Positions 7,333 to 20,564 of a DNA stretch of 64,000 bases are shown here, piece by piece. The number at the start of each line of letters is the position of its first letter. The first letter of the stretch is position 1. Under the pieces are notes generated by a model. The model saw only the letters and a program-made list of their open reading frames with translations. It had not been told where the DNA came from and did not search any database. The translations under genes and the position numbers were made by a program. Origin of the DNA: Escherichia phage DK-13; sequence record MT611523.1; one strand, given 5' to 3'.

Positions 7333-7566
7333 TTATTTTATCATAACCTTTTTAGTTAAAAGCTCGTCGGGATGCCTTCTGGCGTATGAAGGGCTTTCTT
7401 TTACTGGGGTATTTGAAATAACATCACTTAATTTATCAGCTCTAGCTTTTAATTCTACGTGTTCTTTTGAATCTTTAAAAGGATGACTAATTATTTGCAA
7501 ATTAAGACCATGTAATTCATATTTAAGCCCTTCCATAAATCTTGCTGGGCACCCGTAATTATTCAT
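7333..7566 (-). CDS. hypothetical protein (77 aa)
   Basis: co-oriented ORF between HNH gene and soc. Confidence 0.3.
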   Translation of the reverse strand: MNNYGCPARFMEGLKYELHGLNLQIISHPFKDSKEHVELKARADKLSDVISNTPVKESPSYARRHPDELLTKKVMIK

Positions 7567-8407
7567 TTTCGAACCTCTTTACCATGTTTATATAATTTTC
7601 GTCTGGATAACCTAAACTAACTGCTAACTTTCTAAAATTCACATATTTAGGTTTGTTATTACTAAGCCATAAATCTCTAAGCTCAATTTCATAATTCCAT
7701 TTAAGCTGGTTTCCTCTAGCAGTTTTGCTCAAAGTTTTTCCTTTATCTTTTAGAGCTTTTTCCGAAGACTGTTTTAATTTTTGGAGATTTAAAACTTCCT
7801 CAACAGATAAATTATTTTCTTCTGCATAGCGCGCACAAAAATCTTTTACTGTAGCTATTAGACAGTTTTTGTGGGTACCTAAAACTTCCGGATTATTTTC
7901 TTCAACCAAAACTCCCCAGTATCTTCGATAGCGAGGCATATCCCGCGAAATCCAGTCATTATACCAGAAATCAAAATTAGAATACATAAAGGATTTTCTT
8001 TTACGGAGAATGTCTTGCTCTATCCACTCCCCGCGTTTATCGGCCCATAACTTAATAGTAAGGTCTTTCTCTAAATCAGAAAGCTTCTTAAACTGGGCAC
8101 TATTTGTTAGTGTCATTCTCTGGAATGCATTAAGCAAACCCAACACCCGAGTTGAGCACAAAAGATAATGAACATATATGTGTTGGTATATAGGAAGATA
8201 CACCCTATTCCAAGGAGAGATTTTAAAATCGCTGTATTCTGGAAATGCACACTTCGGAAGTATATGATGAGCTTCCGTTTTAGATTTGGTATGGACGTTT
8301 AGTTTATACTTATCTATAATTTTTAAGTAATCATCTAAAAGTTCCCATTGCGGGAACTTTTCTTTAAGAACGGATTTGAAATTAATATCCATTGTCCTGA
8401 CGTTCAA
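7559..8407 (-). CDS. HNH homing endonuclease (Mob-like), freestanding
   Basis: TEAHHILPK HNH core motif; sits at the gene 56/soc junction where T4 carries segF; 5' end overlaps gene 56 so exact start is uncertain. Confidence 0.75.
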   Translation of the reverse strand: MNVRTMDINFKSVLKEKFPQWELLDDYLKIIDKYKLNVHTKSKTEAHHILPKCAFPEYSDFKISPWNRVYLPIYQHIYVHYLLCSTRVLGLLNAFQRMTLTNSAQFKKLSDLEKDLTIKLWADKRGEWIEQDILRKRKSFMYSNFDFWYNDWISRDMPRYRRYWGVLVEENNPEVLGTHKNCLIATVKDFCARYAEENNLSVEEVLNLQKLKQSSEKALKDKGKTLSKTARGNQLKWNYEIELRDLWLSNNKPKYVNFRKLAVSLGYPDENYINMVKRFENE

Positions 8408-8897
8408 AGTTGTGTTTATTTTTCAAATAATAAAGTTTAAACATTTCTTCGGCTGACATATTAAGACCAATAGCCATATTGAATACAAAGTGCATAATGT
8501 CAATTAATTCAAATTTAATTTCGAGTTGGTCTTCAGGAGACATTTCTGAAATAGGTTTAGCTTGTGCTTCCAGATAACGAGCTTTCCATTTTTTCCAGAC
8601 ACCTGAAGCATCTTTTTCACCTTTAGACATTTCACCGAGAGAAGTCAAAAGTTCACGGAATTCATCATCAATACAGTCTTTCTGTTCGCGCATCCAGGCA
8701 ACTACATCGCCTGCAGTGGCCAGTTTATCCGGATGGTAGCAATAATCACGGTCATTAGCCAGACGAACCTGCAATGATTTCTGCATATCAAGCATAACTT
8801 GCAGTGGGTCAGTGCCTTCAAAAATTGCATTATCATAAGCGCCTTGAGCTTTATCAACACCAGCAATCAGTTGAGAACACTCGTTAAAATGAGCCAT
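8382..8897 (-). CDS. 56: dCTP pyrophosphatase (MazG-like) gp56
   Basis: near-collinear match to T4 gp56 from MAHFNEC onward; ORF-track start 8915 extends 6 codons upstream. Confidence 0.9.
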   Translation of the reverse strand: MAHFNECSQLIAGVDKAQGAYDNAIFEGTDPLQVMLDMQKSLQVRLANDRDYCYHPDKLATAGDVVAWMREQKDCIDDEFRELLTSLGEMSKGEKDASGVWKKWKARYLEAQAKPISEMSPEDQLEIKFELIDIMHFVFNMAIGLNMSAEEMFKLYYLKNKHNFERQDNGY

Positions 8898-8957
8898 TAT
8901 ATTTTTCCTTATCAATTCATGTTGTTTGTATGTTAATTATATCGTATTGGTTTAAAG

Positions 8958-8965
8958 CATAAATA
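8958..8965 (+). promoter_or_regulatory. late-promoter-like CATAAATA
   Basis: CATAAATA 16 nt upstream of plus-strand ATG 8982; one mismatch from TATAAATA. Confidence 0.3.
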
Positions 8966-8981
8966 CACGGAAGGAGGATAT

Positions 8982-9179
8982 ATGCTCAAACTATCTAGTC
9001 TAATTCAAGCCATCAAAGGCAGTCGTAAGCGAACGATTCTGGTCCTTTCGATACTCTGTTTAGTTCTACTCTGGAACTTCGTTGTTGCCCCTATTGCATT
9101 GGCACATGGTGTTATATTGCCAGTCGTCGCGCTCGAATCAGTTGTAGATGTTTCACTGGCATTAATCGGCCTTATATAG
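8982..9179 (+). CDS. small hydrophobic protein (65 aa), plus strand
   Basis: strong SD GGAAGGAGGA 7 nt before ATG; two predicted TM segments; opposite orientation to the surrounding array. Confidence 0.5.
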   Translation: MLKLSSLIQAIKGSRKRTILVLSILCLVLLWNFVVAPIALAHGVILPVVALESVVDVSLALIGLI

Positions 9180-9221
9180 GTGGAACTATGTGAACATTAT
9201 TCTATCAGATTTGGAAATTAA

Positions 9222-9362
9222 CCAGTAAGAAAAGCCCATGATGTTTCTCTGTGGAACTTACTGGTTGTGCCTATCGCTGCAACACAAGGGGTGCACTTAC
9301 CTCAGGTCACAACGGAACATATCCATTCCATCATCGGTTACTTTACCGGAATCCCTTCCTAA
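9222..9362 (+). pseudogene. start-less, rearranged partial copy of the 8982-9179 gene
   Basis: translation ...LWNLLVVPIAATQGVHLPQV aligns with ...LWNFVVAPIALAHGVILPVV of the upstream gene; no start codon; preceded by a copy of that gene's 3' end. Confidence 0.35.
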
Positions 9363-10108
9363 ACTTTTGCGTACTTCCAAAAATGGCCGTTTGACCTATA
9401 CATTCGGCCTGTCTTTTTATTTCTTTTACAAGCTGTGTATATATTTTGAGTATTGCCCGCCAATTGTAATAATTCCTTTGCCTCAGCTCCCGAATTATAC
9501 TTTTCAAGTATATTACCAAATTCATCGCATCTACAAACCGGTGTTCCAGTTGCCTTTCGGCATGCTTCTCGGCGCAACTTTTTCGTTTCTTCGGTTTGCG
9601 GATTTTCTTTAAATCGTCTCATTTGTGCATCGCGATTCTTTTGCCGTTGTTCATCAGTAATTGGATTATTTTGATAATACAATTTTAATGAGTTGGCTAT
9701 TTTGCTTTTGGTTTTATCAGACGCAGGGTGGTCGTTATGTCGCTTGTGTAAAGCAATTAACATTTTGTCTTTAAACTCGGATTGACTCCATAAGTTTGAC
9801 ATATGTTCACTAACGGCTTTACTATGTTCTTTTCGCATCCATTCATATTTTGCGCTATCAAATTTGTCACCACACATCCGGTGTATAGCAAACATTAATT
9901 TAGAAAGTCGATAAATTTTAAAAAGTAACAAATGCGCAATAAAATGTTCTCTTGCTGATAACAATACCAAATTATCTTCGGTGTCAGGCCCACCCAAACA
10001 CCTTGGTAGTATATGATGGGACTCCGTATAAAATGGGATATTCTTTTTGTTTAGGCCCCTTGCGAGGCCTTTGTCTATTAATTTATTATATAATTTTAGA
10101 TAATTCAT
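9359..10108 (-). CDS. HNH homing endonuclease (Mob-like), freestanding
   Basis: ESHHILPRCLGG ... N ... H HNH motif; ATG overlaps gene 61 stop (ATGA). Confidence 0.8.
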   Translation of the reverse strand: MNYLKLYNKLIDKGLARGLNKKNIPFYTESHHILPRCLGGPDTEDNLVLLSAREHFIAHLLLFKIYRLSKLMFAIHRMCGDKFDSAKYEWMRKEHSKAVSEHMSNLWSQSEFKDKMLIALHKRHNDHPASDKTKSKIANSLKLYYQNNPITDEQRQKNRDAQMRRFKENPQTEETKKLRREACRKATGTPVCRCDEFGNILEKYNSGAEAKELLQLAGNTQNIYTACKRNKKTGRMYRSNGHFWKYAKV

Positions 10109-11133
10109 ATTTTTGCATATTTGGATAATCGAAGTTTTGCCATTAAACCTTGTGCAATATTATCATTCATATAGGCTTCAATTTGCTCAGGCGTTGCTCC
10201 TTCCGATTTAATCATTTCATTTATATCTTTCGTATGCCACGGTGCATTGTCCCAGAACATAACAGCTTCTCCTGCATCGACTAATTTCTTCATACGTTTA
10301 ATTGTATCAGGATGTCTTGCTTCTGAATCCATCACCCATACTCTGGTTTCTGGATAAGGAACAGCTTCCAATGACAATGTTCCACCAGTTATCGCAATGC
10401 TGTTAGGGATAAACAAACTATCAATCGGACCTTCCATTACCCATACACGTTTACGCTCATCAATCTTGTCTACGCCATAGACTTTGGAAGCTTCTGGGTG
10501 AGCTTTGATTGTGATATATTTTTGTGGTGCATCTTTGCGAAGAGCTCGTCCTTGGAAAGATTCGATTTCTTTTTTGCCGTTGAAGATAGGAATAACCAAG
10601 CGTGGTTCATTCGTTTCATTCTTATACGTCCCAGGATTAACGGAGTTAACTAATGCGGGCCATTGGTTTGTAAACCATAACCGGTTCCAAACATTGCTCG
10701 GAATACACCGACTTTTTACATACTTAACTATCGGATGCGCTTCTGGTAAAGTATCGAGTCTTTCACAAAAAGCAAGCTGCTCAATAACCGGAGTTTTTTC
10801 TGGTTCTTTCGGAGTTTCAATGACTTCATTGCGTTGTCGCCCGAAGGCGTTCTCCTTATACTTCTCAACCATATATTCCCGGTGTAAATCCGGCTCAAAC
10901 TCTTTTATGTATTTGCTTATATGCGTGGAGTAGTCACAGTTAAAACATTTCACGTAAACCGCACCATCAGCCGGATTAGTATACGCCCAGAATCGAGCCT
11001 TGTGTGAATCTTTCTGGGAGTCCCCACAAACCTTGCAACGACAGTTTGCTTTAAATGTGCTCCCGGTGACTTCTCTATAACGTGGTTGATACGATAAAGC
11101 TCTGACTGCAAATTCTTTATCAATATATGACAT
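10105..11133 (-). CDS. 61: DNA primase gp61
   Basis: 342 aa; N-terminal CxxC...CxxC zinc ribbon and TOPRIM-like core; T4 gene order 56-61-41. Confidence 0.9.
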   Translation of the reverse strand: MSYIDKEFAVRALSYQPRYREVTGSTFKANCRCKVCGDSQKDSHKARFWAYTNPADGAVYVKCFNCDYSTHISKYIKEFEPDLHREYMVEKYKENAFGRQRNEVIETPKEPEKTPVIEQLAFCERLDTLPEAHPIVKYVKSRCIPSNVWNRLWFTNQWPALVNSVNPGTYKNETNEPRLVIPIFNGKKEIESFQGRALRKDAPQKYITIKAHPEASKVYGVDKIDERKRVWVMEGPIDSLFIPNSIAITGGTLSLEAVPYPETRVWVMDSEARHPDTIKRMKKLVDAGEAVMFWDNAPWHTKDINEMIKSEGATPEQIEAYMNDNIAQGLMAKLRLSKYAKI

Positions 11134-17541: not shown

Positions 17542-17780
17542 TTTGATTCCTTGATGATAATTACTTGTGCGTTTGATTTACGTTCAGCAACGAGTGCCCA
17601 GATAAATGCAATAAACCATCCGACCATTGTCCAACCTAACAGAAGGTTAACAAAGAAGATTCCGCAATTACTTTTGGTACCACGCAGCAGCGCGATAATC
17701 CACGGCAGAAAATATGCCAGTGCAGCCAGGAAGAAAGAACCAGCCCCAAGAACAACAGTACCCGCAATTAATGTTTCCAT
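17538..17780 (-). CDS. imm: superinfection immunity membrane protein Imm-like
   Basis: 80 aa, two TM segments, LLGWTMVGWFIAFIWAL motif; T4 imm position adjacent to gene 43. Confidence 0.6.
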   Translation of the reverse strand: METLIAGTVVLGAGSFFLAALAYFLPWIIALLRGTKSNCGIFFVNLLLGWTMVGWFIAFIWALVAERKSNAQVIIIKESK

Positions 17781-17817
17781 TTTAATATCCTTAAGTTATT
17801 CATCAGTTGATGAGGTA

Positions 17818-17847
17818 ATCATACGGCAATCCATTGCCGTTGTAAAC
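17818..17847 (-). promoter_or_regulatory. early promoter (-35 GTTTAC / -10 TATGAT) with class-A leader
   Basis: T4-like GTTTAC -35 at 17842-17847, 18-nt spacer, TATGAT, leader TACCTCATCAACTGATGA. Confidence 0.5.
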
Positions 17848-17849
17848 AC

Positions 17850-20564
17850 TTAAAAGTCAAACATGTCAAAAAGAGTTGCTTTCTTTTCGTAATCAACCTT
17901 TGCAGCTTCAGAGAAACCTGTTAATGGCTTAACAAAAGTCTTCTGGAACAGTGTGTTGTAGTCCATCCACTGCAGAACCTGGTCACGGATTTCAATCGGG
18001 AGTTCAATCCCAGATGGCCATGCAATCACGGTTTCACCAAACGGGTTGCCGACTTTAAGAGGAAGTACATACACCTTTTCCCCTTCCATGATTTGCGGAA
18101 CAGTCTTCAGACCTTTAGTTGCACGCATATAAGCAAGCACACCTTTGATATGAGCCGGGCACTTAAATCCAGGGAAACCACCTTCATTATATTTCTGGAT
18201 GTTGTTAACCGATGATACACCTGCGATGGTCATGTAGTTAAGCTCATTAAATTCCTTATTGAATTCCTTGAAGTATGTCTGCAGAGATTCTTCACCTTCT
18301 TGCAGCATGCGGCGGATACATTCTTTCAGAGCTTTCTGACATGCCTTTGGAGTACTCGACTTTTGAGTTTCCAGACCCATAATTTTCAGTTTCGGAACAG
18401 CATAACGTGTGCCTTCCATATCGTACACGTTCAGCGCATAACGCTTCTTCGCCGTCCAGAATCCACCCACACCTTTAGAACCCAGCGGAGGACATGCAAT
18501 CGCCTCACGGTCCATAAACATAAGGTGCTGTTTGTTGTTCATGTATTCAGCCAGCTCACGGAAAGCTTTATCGATTGCCGGTTCCAGACGGTCTTTCGCA
18601 AACTTGTCCATGAAGTCAACCAGGTGGTTTGTATCACGGAATTTAGATTCGCCACCAACCTTTTTAATCAGGTTATCACACTGGATATAAATGGAGTCAG
18701 TATCGCCATAGAACACATAAGTTTCGCCGCTTGTCCCACAAACACTATCGAAGTATTCGTTAACTTTACGCTCAATCCACTGCAATGCAAGTTGTCCGAA
18801 AGATGTAATCGCGGTTGCATTTCGCAGGTCAAAGTAACGGAACCAGATATTGCCCAGAGCGCCATAACAGCTGTTGATAAGCAGCTTACGGTTAATCTGT
18901 GCGGTCATGCCTGCAACTTCTTCCATCTGCGCTTTATACAACATACCATTTAGGACTGTTTGATTCAGACCATGCAAGGTTGTTTTCATATTGTCATCAA
19001 AGTCATGACGATAATCAACTTCAGGTTCGGTTGTACCAGTTCCTGGATTGCGCAGAGCTTCCTTAATCAGTTCACCATTACGTTGAGCCGCAAGCATATA
19101 GCCTTTGTGCTCTTTACGCTGATTAAACACCTTGGTGACTTCTGTCGGAATAATACCCGCAACATCTTTAAAATACATCATACCATTTGGAGCACAACTA
19201 AATGTATCAGATGGACGGTCAGCAGTTCCGGCGATGTATTCATGCATTTGCGCAGGAGCAAATGAACCGGCAATCGTTTCTGGACTGATGTTAATCTGTC
19301 GGATAATGCTCGGATACAGAGATGTTAAGTCACAGCTCATTACATATTTGTACGCGTTCGGAATAGGTTCCTTAACAAATGCACCAGGGAACGATTGACG
19401 AACATGCGATTTGGTTTCCGGAATGACTTTGTTTTGAGTCTTCAGGCTGTTAAAGATAATCGCATCCCAAGTTTTGATTGGGCTGAATACAGACTGAATC
19501 TGCATTTTTGCGTAATAACCCATTGACTGACTCAGGTTAATAAACTGCCGCTTACGGTCAATCTGCACAACACGATAAACGTCGATGATGTTATAAGAAA
19601 TATACCGCTGGTGATTTGATTCGCGCAGTTTAGAAATCGGGCCATCATACGGGAGTTTACCAACACCCAGTTCAGATTCCGCAACATAATCCAACGAATA
19701 AGACGGTTGGTTTGTGAAGCTGAACTTTTTATACAGGTCCAGATAATCCAGAACAGAGATACCCAGAATCTGAATGATTTCTTGTTCTTCACCAAAGCCA
19801 TTGTTAATGACCTTAACTTTTGTACGACGATGTGGGCTCAGACGTTTTGCCGTAGCTTCACCAAATACATTTTTAAGGCGGTTGTAGATATATGGAATAT
19901 CAAATTTCTCGATGTTCCAACCAGTTAACATAACCGGAGTTTTCTCGTTCCAGAATACCAAATACTGCTGGAGCATTTCTTCTTCTGAATCGAAAGCCAT
20001 ATAAACAATTTTTTCCAGGATTTCTTCAGGGACTTCATCACCGCCGTCTTCCTGCAGCTTAGCAGCAATATCAATAGACCATTGCTCCACAGTGGCGTAT
20101 GGTGAGCCCAAAAGGTCAAAGACATAGAATTTATCGTCTACCGAATCATAGTGCGTCAGGGCATCAATAGGGTGACGTGCTTCAGACGGTTCAGGGAACC
20201 CATCAGGAGATGTCACCTCGATATCGAAGTTAGCAACACGGATTTTACTTGAATCATATTTGATTTCGTGTGGGTAACGGTCGGACAAGTATGCGAGTTT
20301 AAAGTCATCCATACCCATAGCTTCGAGACCCATGTCATTCATTCGCTTCATCCACTGGGATGCATCACGCATGGAATCGAATTCTTTTTTCACACAACCT
20401 TTATTATAGATGTCTGTATACTTTGCAGCCTGGCCTTCCCGGGCGTGCATAAACAAGCATGGGGCATAAGGGATTTCACGAACACGTTCATGACCATTCT
20501 TGTCAATATATCGTTCGAGTAGGTTGTCACCGATTTGTTCGATAGTTAAATAAAATTCTTGCAT
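17850..20564 (-). CDS. 43: DNA polymerase gp43 (family B)
   Basis: 904 aa; exo motif FDIEV, pol motifs DLTSLYPSI and YGDTDS; collinear with T4/RB69 gp43. Confidence 0.95.
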   Translation of the reverse strand: MQEFYLTIEQIGDNLLERYIDKNGHERVREIPYAPCLFMHAREGQAAKYTDIYNKGCVKKEFDSMRDASQWMKRMNDMGLEAMGMDDFKLAYLSDRYPHEIKYDSSKIRVANFDIEVTSPDGFPEPSEARHPIDALTHYDSVDDKFYVFDLLGSPYATVEQWSIDIAAKLQEDGGDEVPEEILEKIVYMAFDSEEEMLQQYLVFWNEKTPVMLTGWNIEKFDIPYIYNRLKNVFGEATAKRLSPHRRTKVKVINNGFGEEQEIIQILGISVLDYLDLYKKFSFTNQPSYSLDYVAESELGVGKLPYDGPISKLRESNHQRYISYNIIDVYRVVQIDRKRQFINLSQSMGYYAKMQIQSVFSPIKTWDAIIFNSLKTQNKVIPETKSHVRQSFPGAFVKEPIPNAYKYVMSCDLTSLYPSIIRQINISPETIAGSFAPAQMHEYIAGTADRPSDTFSCAPNGMMYFKDVAGIIPTEVTKVFNQRKEHKGYMLAAQRNGELIKEALRNPGTGTTEPEVDYRHDFDDNMKTTLHGLNQTVLNGMLYKAQMEEVAGMTAQINRKLLINSCYGALGNIWFRYFDLRNATAITSFGQLALQWIERKVNEYFDSVCGTSGETYVFYGDTDSIYIQCDNLIKKVGGESKFRDTNHLVDFMDKFAKDRLEPAIDKAFRELAEYMNNKQHLMFMDREAIACPPLGSKGVGGFWTAKKRYALNVYDMEGTRYAVPKLKIMGLETQKSSTPKACQKALKECIRRMLQEGEESLQTYFKEFNKEFNELNYMTIAGVSSVNNIQKYNEGGFPGFKCPAHIKGVLAYMRATKGLKTVPQIMEGEKVYVLPLKVGNPFGETVIAWPSGIELPIEIRDQVLQWMDYNTLFQKTFVKPLTGFSEAAKVDYEKKATLFDMFDF

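Follow-up and report, generated by a model that had tools for sequence, protein, structure and literature searches.

Positions 9188-9362 on the plus strand of the DNA analysed here very probably represent an ordinary pseudogene, namely what is left of orf2, the second of two tandem, diverged paralogues for hydrophobic proteins of about 65 aa, in a setting where loss of orf2 has been recurrent and a neighbouring HNH gene arrived separately. The stretch as a whole, referred to as the window, spans 64,000 nucleotides of Escherichia phage DK-13, a T4-like phage of Gaprivervirus type, and its closest records are Escherichia phage vB_EcoM_RZ (92.7% identity over 8300-10200) and Yersinia phage vB_YenM_P8, hereafter RZ and P8. 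A sequence-only reading had singled out positions 9222-9362 as a rearranged, start-less partial copy of the 65-aa gene just upstream (orf1), and had called that copy consistent with a repair scar of homing-endonuclease activity. The features of the locus are collected in Table 1.

Table 1. Features of the locus between the HNH-like endonuclease gene and primase gene 61 in the window
Feature	Position	Strand	Remark
HNH-like endonuclease gene	7559-8392	minus	
Gene 56 dCTPase	8382-8915	minus	
Late-promoter-like octamer CATAAATA	8958-8965	plus	16 nt upstream of the orf1 ATG
AGGAGG Shine-Dalgarno	8972-8977		between the octamer and the orf1 ATG
orf1, intact, 65-aa small hydrophobic protein, phrog_2024	8982-9179	plus	surviving paralogue
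psi-orf2	9188-9362	plus	predicted pseudogene of the second phrog_2024 paralogue
Fragment singled out by the sequence-only reading	9222-9362	plus	3' portion (3' two-thirds) of psi-orf2
Remnant of the ancestral primase (gene 61) 3' end	9359-9377	minus	
Predicted free-standing HNH-type homing-endonuclease gene	9359-10108	minus	249 aa
Diverged 3' tract of primase gene 61	10105-10344	minus	
Primase gene 61, full gene	10105-11133	minus	

A degenerate orf2 beside an intact orf1

The intact counterpart of the remnant is found in phage P479, an HNH-free relative in which a second plus-strand ORF lies between gene 56 and gene 61, 8 nt past the orf1 orthologue, encoding 66 aa (MGTLFYQIWKLTSKKDKKLIMGFLALDVFLWNLLVVPIAATQGVHLLQVTMEHIHSIIGYFTGIPS) and ending in a stop codon that overlaps the primase stop. 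The window is colinear with this gene from ATG through stop apart from two lesions, which were placed by alignment to P479, VR7 and RZ and to 14 relatives. The ATG survives at 9188-9190, 8 nt past the orf1 stop, and directly precedes a TGA that stands in place of GGA at codon 2 (9191-9193); a frameshifting deletion of 26 bp falls between 9232 and 9233; and the original TAA stop is retained at 9360-9362. On either side of the deletion 44/45 and 122/130 nucleotides are identical to P479 orf2, and with both lesions undone in silico the product is 66 aa long, 62 of them identical to the P479 protein. A tblastn search of the window with P479 orf2 placed residues 1-15 at 9188-9232 and residues 25-66 at 9234-9359 (E=6.6e-22), and found no second copy of orf2 type elsewhere in the 64 kb, so that a relocated intact orf2 within the window is rejected.

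Given the TGA at codon 2 and the 26-bp deletion, no full-length orf2 product is possible in the window; an intact phrog_2024 frame with a product of about 65 aa was sought for this copy and is absent, and the copy is therefore a pseudogene rather than a functional member of the family. The feature properly spans 9188-9362 and not 9222-9362 alone, and a start codon does exist, contrary to the earlier description; as a consequence of the deletion it is out of frame with the 9222-9362 frame, which is open from 9222 to the TAA and reads PVRKAHDVSLWNLLVVPIAATQGVHLPQVTTEHIHSIIGYFTGIPS. The deletion junction (CCAGTAAGAAAAGCCCATGATG) had no match among IMG/VR viral contigs. The corresponding allele of phage CJ20 reads …AAGAAAGACAAGAAACATCATGGGCTAAAAAGTCCATGATG… and suggests that the 26-bp deletion arose in an already dead allele, by way of a 24-bp loss between short A-runs.

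Similarity between the fragment and orf1, the starting point of the sequence-only reading, is real and exceeds that of shuffled controls. The segment SLWNLLVVPIAATQGVHLPQV aligns with LLWNFVVAPIALAHGVILPVV of orf1, within an alignment that takes in orf1 residues 28-54, with a BLOSUM62 local score of 68 against 22.2±4.4 in shuffles (maximum 43; 0/2000 reach 68), and the DNA local score is 26 against 15.8±2.3 (2/1000 shuffles reach 26). The fragment is thus a dead partial homologue of the 65-aa gene, as had been proposed in part, but it is not a copy of orf1; it is what is left of the separate paralogue orf2, whose protein shares about 34% amino acid identity with that of orf1. A supposed repeat of the last codons of orf1 did not hold up: GATGTTTCTCTG at 9240-9251 agrees with GATGTTTCACTG at 9147-9158 in 11 of 12 positions, an agreement equalled in 4.7% of shuffles. 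Relatives with intact orf2 carry GATGTTTTCCTG or GATATTTTCCTG at these positions, encoding the D-V/I-F-L of ...LALDVFLWN..., and the 'DVSL' that resembles the orf1 C-terminus corresponds to this D-V-F-L.

The phrog_2024 family at the end of the primase gene

Both members of the pair belong to one small protein family. The orf1 protein matches phrog_2024 over positions 1-65 of 65 (E=2.4e-26) and the intact orf2 protein of P479 over 1-64 of 65 (E=2.1e-25), and both have a strongly hydrophobic central segment, with a Kyte-Doolittle 19-residue maximum of 2.6 in orf1. Searches of Pfam and NCBIfam with orf1, orf2 and the T4 homologue gave no match, and literature searches returned no study of this small phrog_2024 gene. 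By profile match the window genes fall in one family with the phrog_2024 proteins VR7 ORF033w, RB32 ORF030w, P479 QWQ55821/QWQ55822 and Marfa gp028. In P479, VR7, JS98, Marfa, Bp7 and T4, genes of the family have a conserved plus-strand position, where they converge on gene 61 and directly adjoin its 3' end; in the window the HNH gene intervenes between psi-orf2 and the primase. The plus-strand orientation, primase-convergent position, late-promoter-like motif and strong Shine-Dalgarno sequence of phrog_2024 genes in T4-type phages are all common to the window locus, which differs from phrog_2024 loci elsewhere in that its orf2 copy is dead, through the nonsense codon and the 26-bp deletion.

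The relationships of the two paralogues point in different directions. At 73-79% identity orf2 resembles the single-copy gene found at the same position in JS98 and Bp7 (Dhakavirus) and in Marfa (Marfavirus), to which the identity of orf1 is only 25-36%; orf1 comes nearer, at about 50% identity, to the single-copy gene adjoining the primase in approximately 670 Tequatrovirus-type records, including T2 and T4. To judge from these comparisons, orf2 is the likely orthologue of the single-copy gene of Dhakavirus and Marfavirus, and orf1 belongs with the family members of T4/T2-type phages. The tandem presence of both branches was seen in Gaprivervirus-type genomes only. Both orf1 and orf2 are old and diverged copies. 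Their single-copy counterparts belong to different phage genera, which may mean that recombination between lineages, and not duplication in place, brought the pair together.

The RefSeq record of T4 itself (NC_000866.4) leaves the 309 bp that separate dam from gene 61 without an annotated gene. This gap contains an intact 66-aa ORF (MVQKLMALVNAIKGNKKRIAFTISTMVGILLWNFILSPVAIAHGVNIPVVTLDTFVDLAFALVGLI) at 17738-17938 (L019 3239-3439, plus strand) that is 51% identical to the window orf1, is preceded by GATAAATA and AGGAGG, and has a stop codon that overlaps the primase stop, so that T4 has an unannotated intact member of phrog_2024. About 700 phage records have this gene beside the primase. The names that databases give to these small ORFs vary and find no support in Pfam or NCBIfam: 'DNA packaging ATPase' is the label both of a 33-aa ORF inside the P8 psi-orf2 (L004 2306-2407) and of the intact UPEC01 orf2 (L020 61-261), and 'holin family protein' is that of orf1 in EAWsc9 (L008 3108-3305).

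The consensus of T4 late promoters is TATAAATA. The octamer upstream of orf1 is invariant in nine relatives, and at the same place before the orthologous single-copy genes stands CTATAAATA in Bp7 and Marfa (also given as the consensus itself), AATAAATA in JS98 and the T4 octamer given above. Exact matches to the consensus occur in the window at chance level, with none upstream of orf1. It may be that CATAAATA acts as a late promoter and that the locus is expressed late, to judge by the T4 late consensus.

The HNH gene and its footprints

The gene that separates psi-orf2 from the primase appears to be an ordinary free-standing homing-endonuclease gene. Its protein matches phrog_655 ('homing endonuclease') with E=6.6e-45; against the Pfam HNH profile PF01844 it scores 19.8 bits, below the gathering score of 21.4, and an HH...N...H motif can be made out in residues 31-57. 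Among 50,697 phage records its DNA was found only in RZ (99.9%) and P8 (98.8%), and its presence in 3 of 19 Gaprivervirus-type genomes is sporadic, at a fixed site with a diverged flank. Homologues of 52-55% identity adjoin the primase in Bp7, PSD2002 and MHG19, and an IMG/VR search with the HNH protein confirmed no relatives. In Yersinia phage MHG19 (L018 2075-2184) the 52%-identical endonuclease directly follows the primase, and the 110 bp between it and gene 56 contain nothing recognisable as a phrog_2024 gene or its remains.

Free-standing HNH homing endonucleases of T-even phages, the Mob family that includes T4 MobE, have been reviewed (PMC2988022, PMC2790892), and the predicted endonuclease of the window is likewise intergenic, free-standing and sporadic among close relatives. 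The UAAUGA by which mobE overlaps its upstream gene (PMC2988022) has an analogue in the ATGA shared between the HNH start codon and the stop of the upstream essential gene, the window primase, which ends in a recoded …SKYAKI-stop. The review's list of T4 sites does not include the insertion site seen here, between primase gene 61 and the small gene. The flagged fragment is a neighbour of this Mob-type element and not a part of it.

Co-conversion during homing produces diverged flanking tracts (PMC2988022), and such a tract is found on the primase side, as for other Mob-type elements. Compared with HNH-free P479, positions 10105-10344 are 70, 82, 87 and 85% identical in successive 60-nt bins, and identity beyond 10345 is 98-100%; over the same tract HNH-free genomes agree with one another at 90-100%, and the window with RZ and P8 at 98-100%. 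Because the drop in identity is confined to this interval, and because RZ and P8 match the window there, the HNH gene appears to travel with about 240 bp of foreign primase 3' sequence that resembles a co-conversion tract. No donor of this sequence was found; the best matches outside the HNH-bearing genomes were ordinary Gapriverviruses, at about 82%.

On the other side of the cassette, the minus strand from 9377 to 9359 reads G AAG TAC GCA AAA GTT TAG, which is the ancestral primase end (…SKYAKV-stop) and is identical to the primase 3' end of HNH-free P479, VR7, VR20, SP18, CJ20 and others. This remnant supplies the last five codons and the stop of the HNH ORF (K-Y-A-K-V-stop, within …HFWKYAKV-stop), in contrast to the native endonuclease C-terminus of Bp7, …WKYQ-stop. 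Here the HNH insertion has its left junction: at 9377 the sequence abruptly becomes like that of HNH-free genomes again, and the joint sits at a GAAGTA microhomology. On the sequence, this joint looks like the one place that resembles a recombination scar. The left junction of P8 (L004 2290-2410, against window 9359-9381) is of another kind and lacks the primase-end remnant; there the HNH ORF keeps WKYQ and then reads through, as DDEGIPVK, into the antisense of psi-orf2. Two types of left junction imply that this side recombined at least twice.

The window and RZ are 99-100% identical over about 8980-10280, which takes in orf1, psi-orf2, the HNH gene and the primase tract; identity is 66-86% to the left, in gene 56, and 93-96% to the right (10282-10481). 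This mosaic structure suggests a recent exchange of a block of about 1.3 kb. The allele with the 26-bp deletion is physically linked to the HNH cassette in these two phages and may be hitchhiking with it.

A second homing-endonuclease-like gene lies on the far side of gene 56, with a product of 277 aa when read from its ATG and a match to phrog_655 (E=2e-30). It occupies the slot held by segF in T4, VR7 and P479, is unrelated to VR7 SegF, and shares 11 nt at its ATG with the end of gene 56. The adjoining 3' half of that gene (8382-8780) is just 66-80% identical to RZ, P8, CJ20 and VR20, and looks like another endonuclease-linked diverged tract. In Klebsiella phage Marfa (L010 1-1472) gene 56 (nucleoside triphosphate pyrophosphohydrolase) is annotated as two pieces around a 252-aa hypothetical ORF, and may there be split by a mobile element.

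Loss of orf2 across genomes and its possible causes

The locus was read in 19 Gaprivervirus-type genomes, the window included. An intact orf2 of 66 aa is present in six (P479, VR25, VR26, UPEC01, MN01 and TH44), all of them free of the HNH gene, and this was the outcome of the comparison with HNH-free relatives that the sequence-only reading had proposed. The remaining 13 have a broken orf2, with at least six types of lesion, and in 10 of these 13 the HNH gene is absent. A single added base pair near the 3' end is found in VR7. The change of GGA to TGA at codon 2 occurs in VR20, CJ20, TH55, TH22, ECML-359, the window and RZ; a 2-bp deletion in VR20, CJ20, TH55, TH22, EAWsc9 and ECML-359; and an 86-bp deletion in the 3' half of the gene in CJ20, TH55, TH22, EAWsc9 and ECML-359. 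A deletion of 97 bp in the 5' half, between two GTGGAAC repeats, is carried by SP18, DCP80, TH54 and P8, and the 26-bp deletion by the window and RZ. As with other pseudogenes that follow paralogue loss after tandem duplication or acquisition, one copy stays intact under purifying selection (orf1 is intact in 15/15 genomes compared, with a pooled pN/pS of 0.41) and the other gains independent nonsense, frameshift and short-repeat deletion lesions across lineages.

The repair-scar explanation of the sequence-only reading, by which a copy of the small gene was rearranged and cut short when a double-strand break made by the HNH enzyme was repaired imprecisely, is distinctly unlikely. The fragment does abut the HNH gene, overlapping the 3' end of that ORF by 4 nt, and all three genomes with the HNH gene (window, RZ and P8) have a broken orf2, but so do 10 of the 16 without it, through five other lesion types (Fisher one-sided p=0.295, the HNH-bearing genomes not being independent). 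Only the 26-bp deletion is confined to HNH-bearing genomes, where it lies inside the window/RZ block of near identity; the codon-2 TGA of the very same allele is also present in five HNH-free phages, and the 97-bp-deletion allele of P8 is one aligned position apart from that of HNH-free TH54 and has TH54's distinctive substitutions. The resemblance of the left HNH junction to a microhomology joint is restricted to 9359-9377, at the end of the HNH ORF; the fragment body (9188-9358) is neither rearranged nor duplicated nor joined at microhomology, and the claim of rearrangement fails on its colinearity with the intact orf2 of HNH-free relatives. Divergence of the co-conversion type is found on the primase side and not on the orf2 side, where the window is 94% identical to P479 (9233-9362), and in Bp7 and PSD2002 an endonuclease of 55% identity occupies this site while the small gene next to it, the orthologue of orf2, is intact. 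As an account of the nonsense codon, or of the loss of function itself, a repair scar is thus largely refuted. Given the 10 HNH-free genomes with a broken orf2, the TGA common to HNH-free phages, the likeness of the P8 and TH54 alleles and the intact gene of Bp7, orf2 loss appears to be recurrent in the genus and independent of the HNH gene, and its decay is not attributable to this neighbour. A link between HNH-associated recombination and the 26-bp deletion in particular is possible. In its fullest form, which we consider unlikely, the deletion and the chimeric HNH ORF end would both be by-products of one homing event, in which microhomology break repair at the primase 3' end damaged the flank and the deleted allele then travelled in the co-conversion tract; if this were true, free-standing homing endonucleases would actively speed the erosion of dispensable neighbour genes in T4-like phages. 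It would be a further stretch to propose that orf2 holds part of the recognition site of the enzyme, so that its loss gives self-immunity.

Two other explanations concern the remnant itself. Retained function, whether through a truncated peptide (a candidate being the 31-aa ORF that begins with GTG, 9267-9362) or through a 3' UTR, a terminator or a similar cis element downstream of the convergent genes, would fit the frame that is still open over 9222-9362 and the last 30 or so nucleotides of orf2 (TTACCGGAATCCCTTCCTAA), which are kept in every genome, even those with large deletions; this kept 3' end, however, shares sequence with the stop codon of the primase or HNH ORF, which explains its conservation. 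The 31-aa ORF is without a hydrophobic segment or an obvious Shine-Dalgarno sequence, no terminator-like site was found in 8850-9500 (sigma-70-like sites being at chance level), and an Rfam search of 8800-10300 gave no match of note. Either half of the gene is deleted in one relative or another, so that no part of the orf2 body is universally kept, and a functional remnant is very improbable. It is almost certainly wrong to regard the resemblance as chance or low complexity, or the lesions as sequencing errors: both proteins are hydrophobic, which inflates similarity, and the 12-mer 'repeat' is at chance level, but the protein score lies about 10 SD above shuffles, both proteins match the same PHROG, and intact orf2 recovers the remnant by tblastn. 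These results rule out chance similarity, and identical lesions in the independently sequenced phage RZ rule out sequencing error.

The history favoured here, of an ordinary pseudogene in a recurrently decaying paralogue, would begin with a tandem phrog_2024 pair, plus-strand and flanked by gene 56 and the 3' end of gene 61, in which orf2 was dispensable beside orf1. Redundancy is assumed here, and the identity of only about 34% between the two proteins speaks against it. Thereafter orf2 would have been lost repeatedly in the genus through point and frameshift mutations and short-repeat-mediated deletions, the window allele acquiring the nonsense codon and the 26-bp deletion. The HNH gene probably arrived separately, as a cassette with its foreign primase sequence, and on its left this cassette would have become fused to the final codons of the old primase. 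The dead orf2 allele would then lie in the flank of the cassette and at most hitchhike with it.

Of little importance in itself, as an unannotated pseudogene from a widespread family of small phage genes, psi-orf2 does show the speed with which a dispensable paralogue can erode in T4-like genomes. The locus also documents a primase-associated HNH cassette with clear boundaries, in the form of a 240-bp foreign primase tract and a chimeric ORF end, and offers a clean natural series of independent losses, with six lesion types in 19 genomes.
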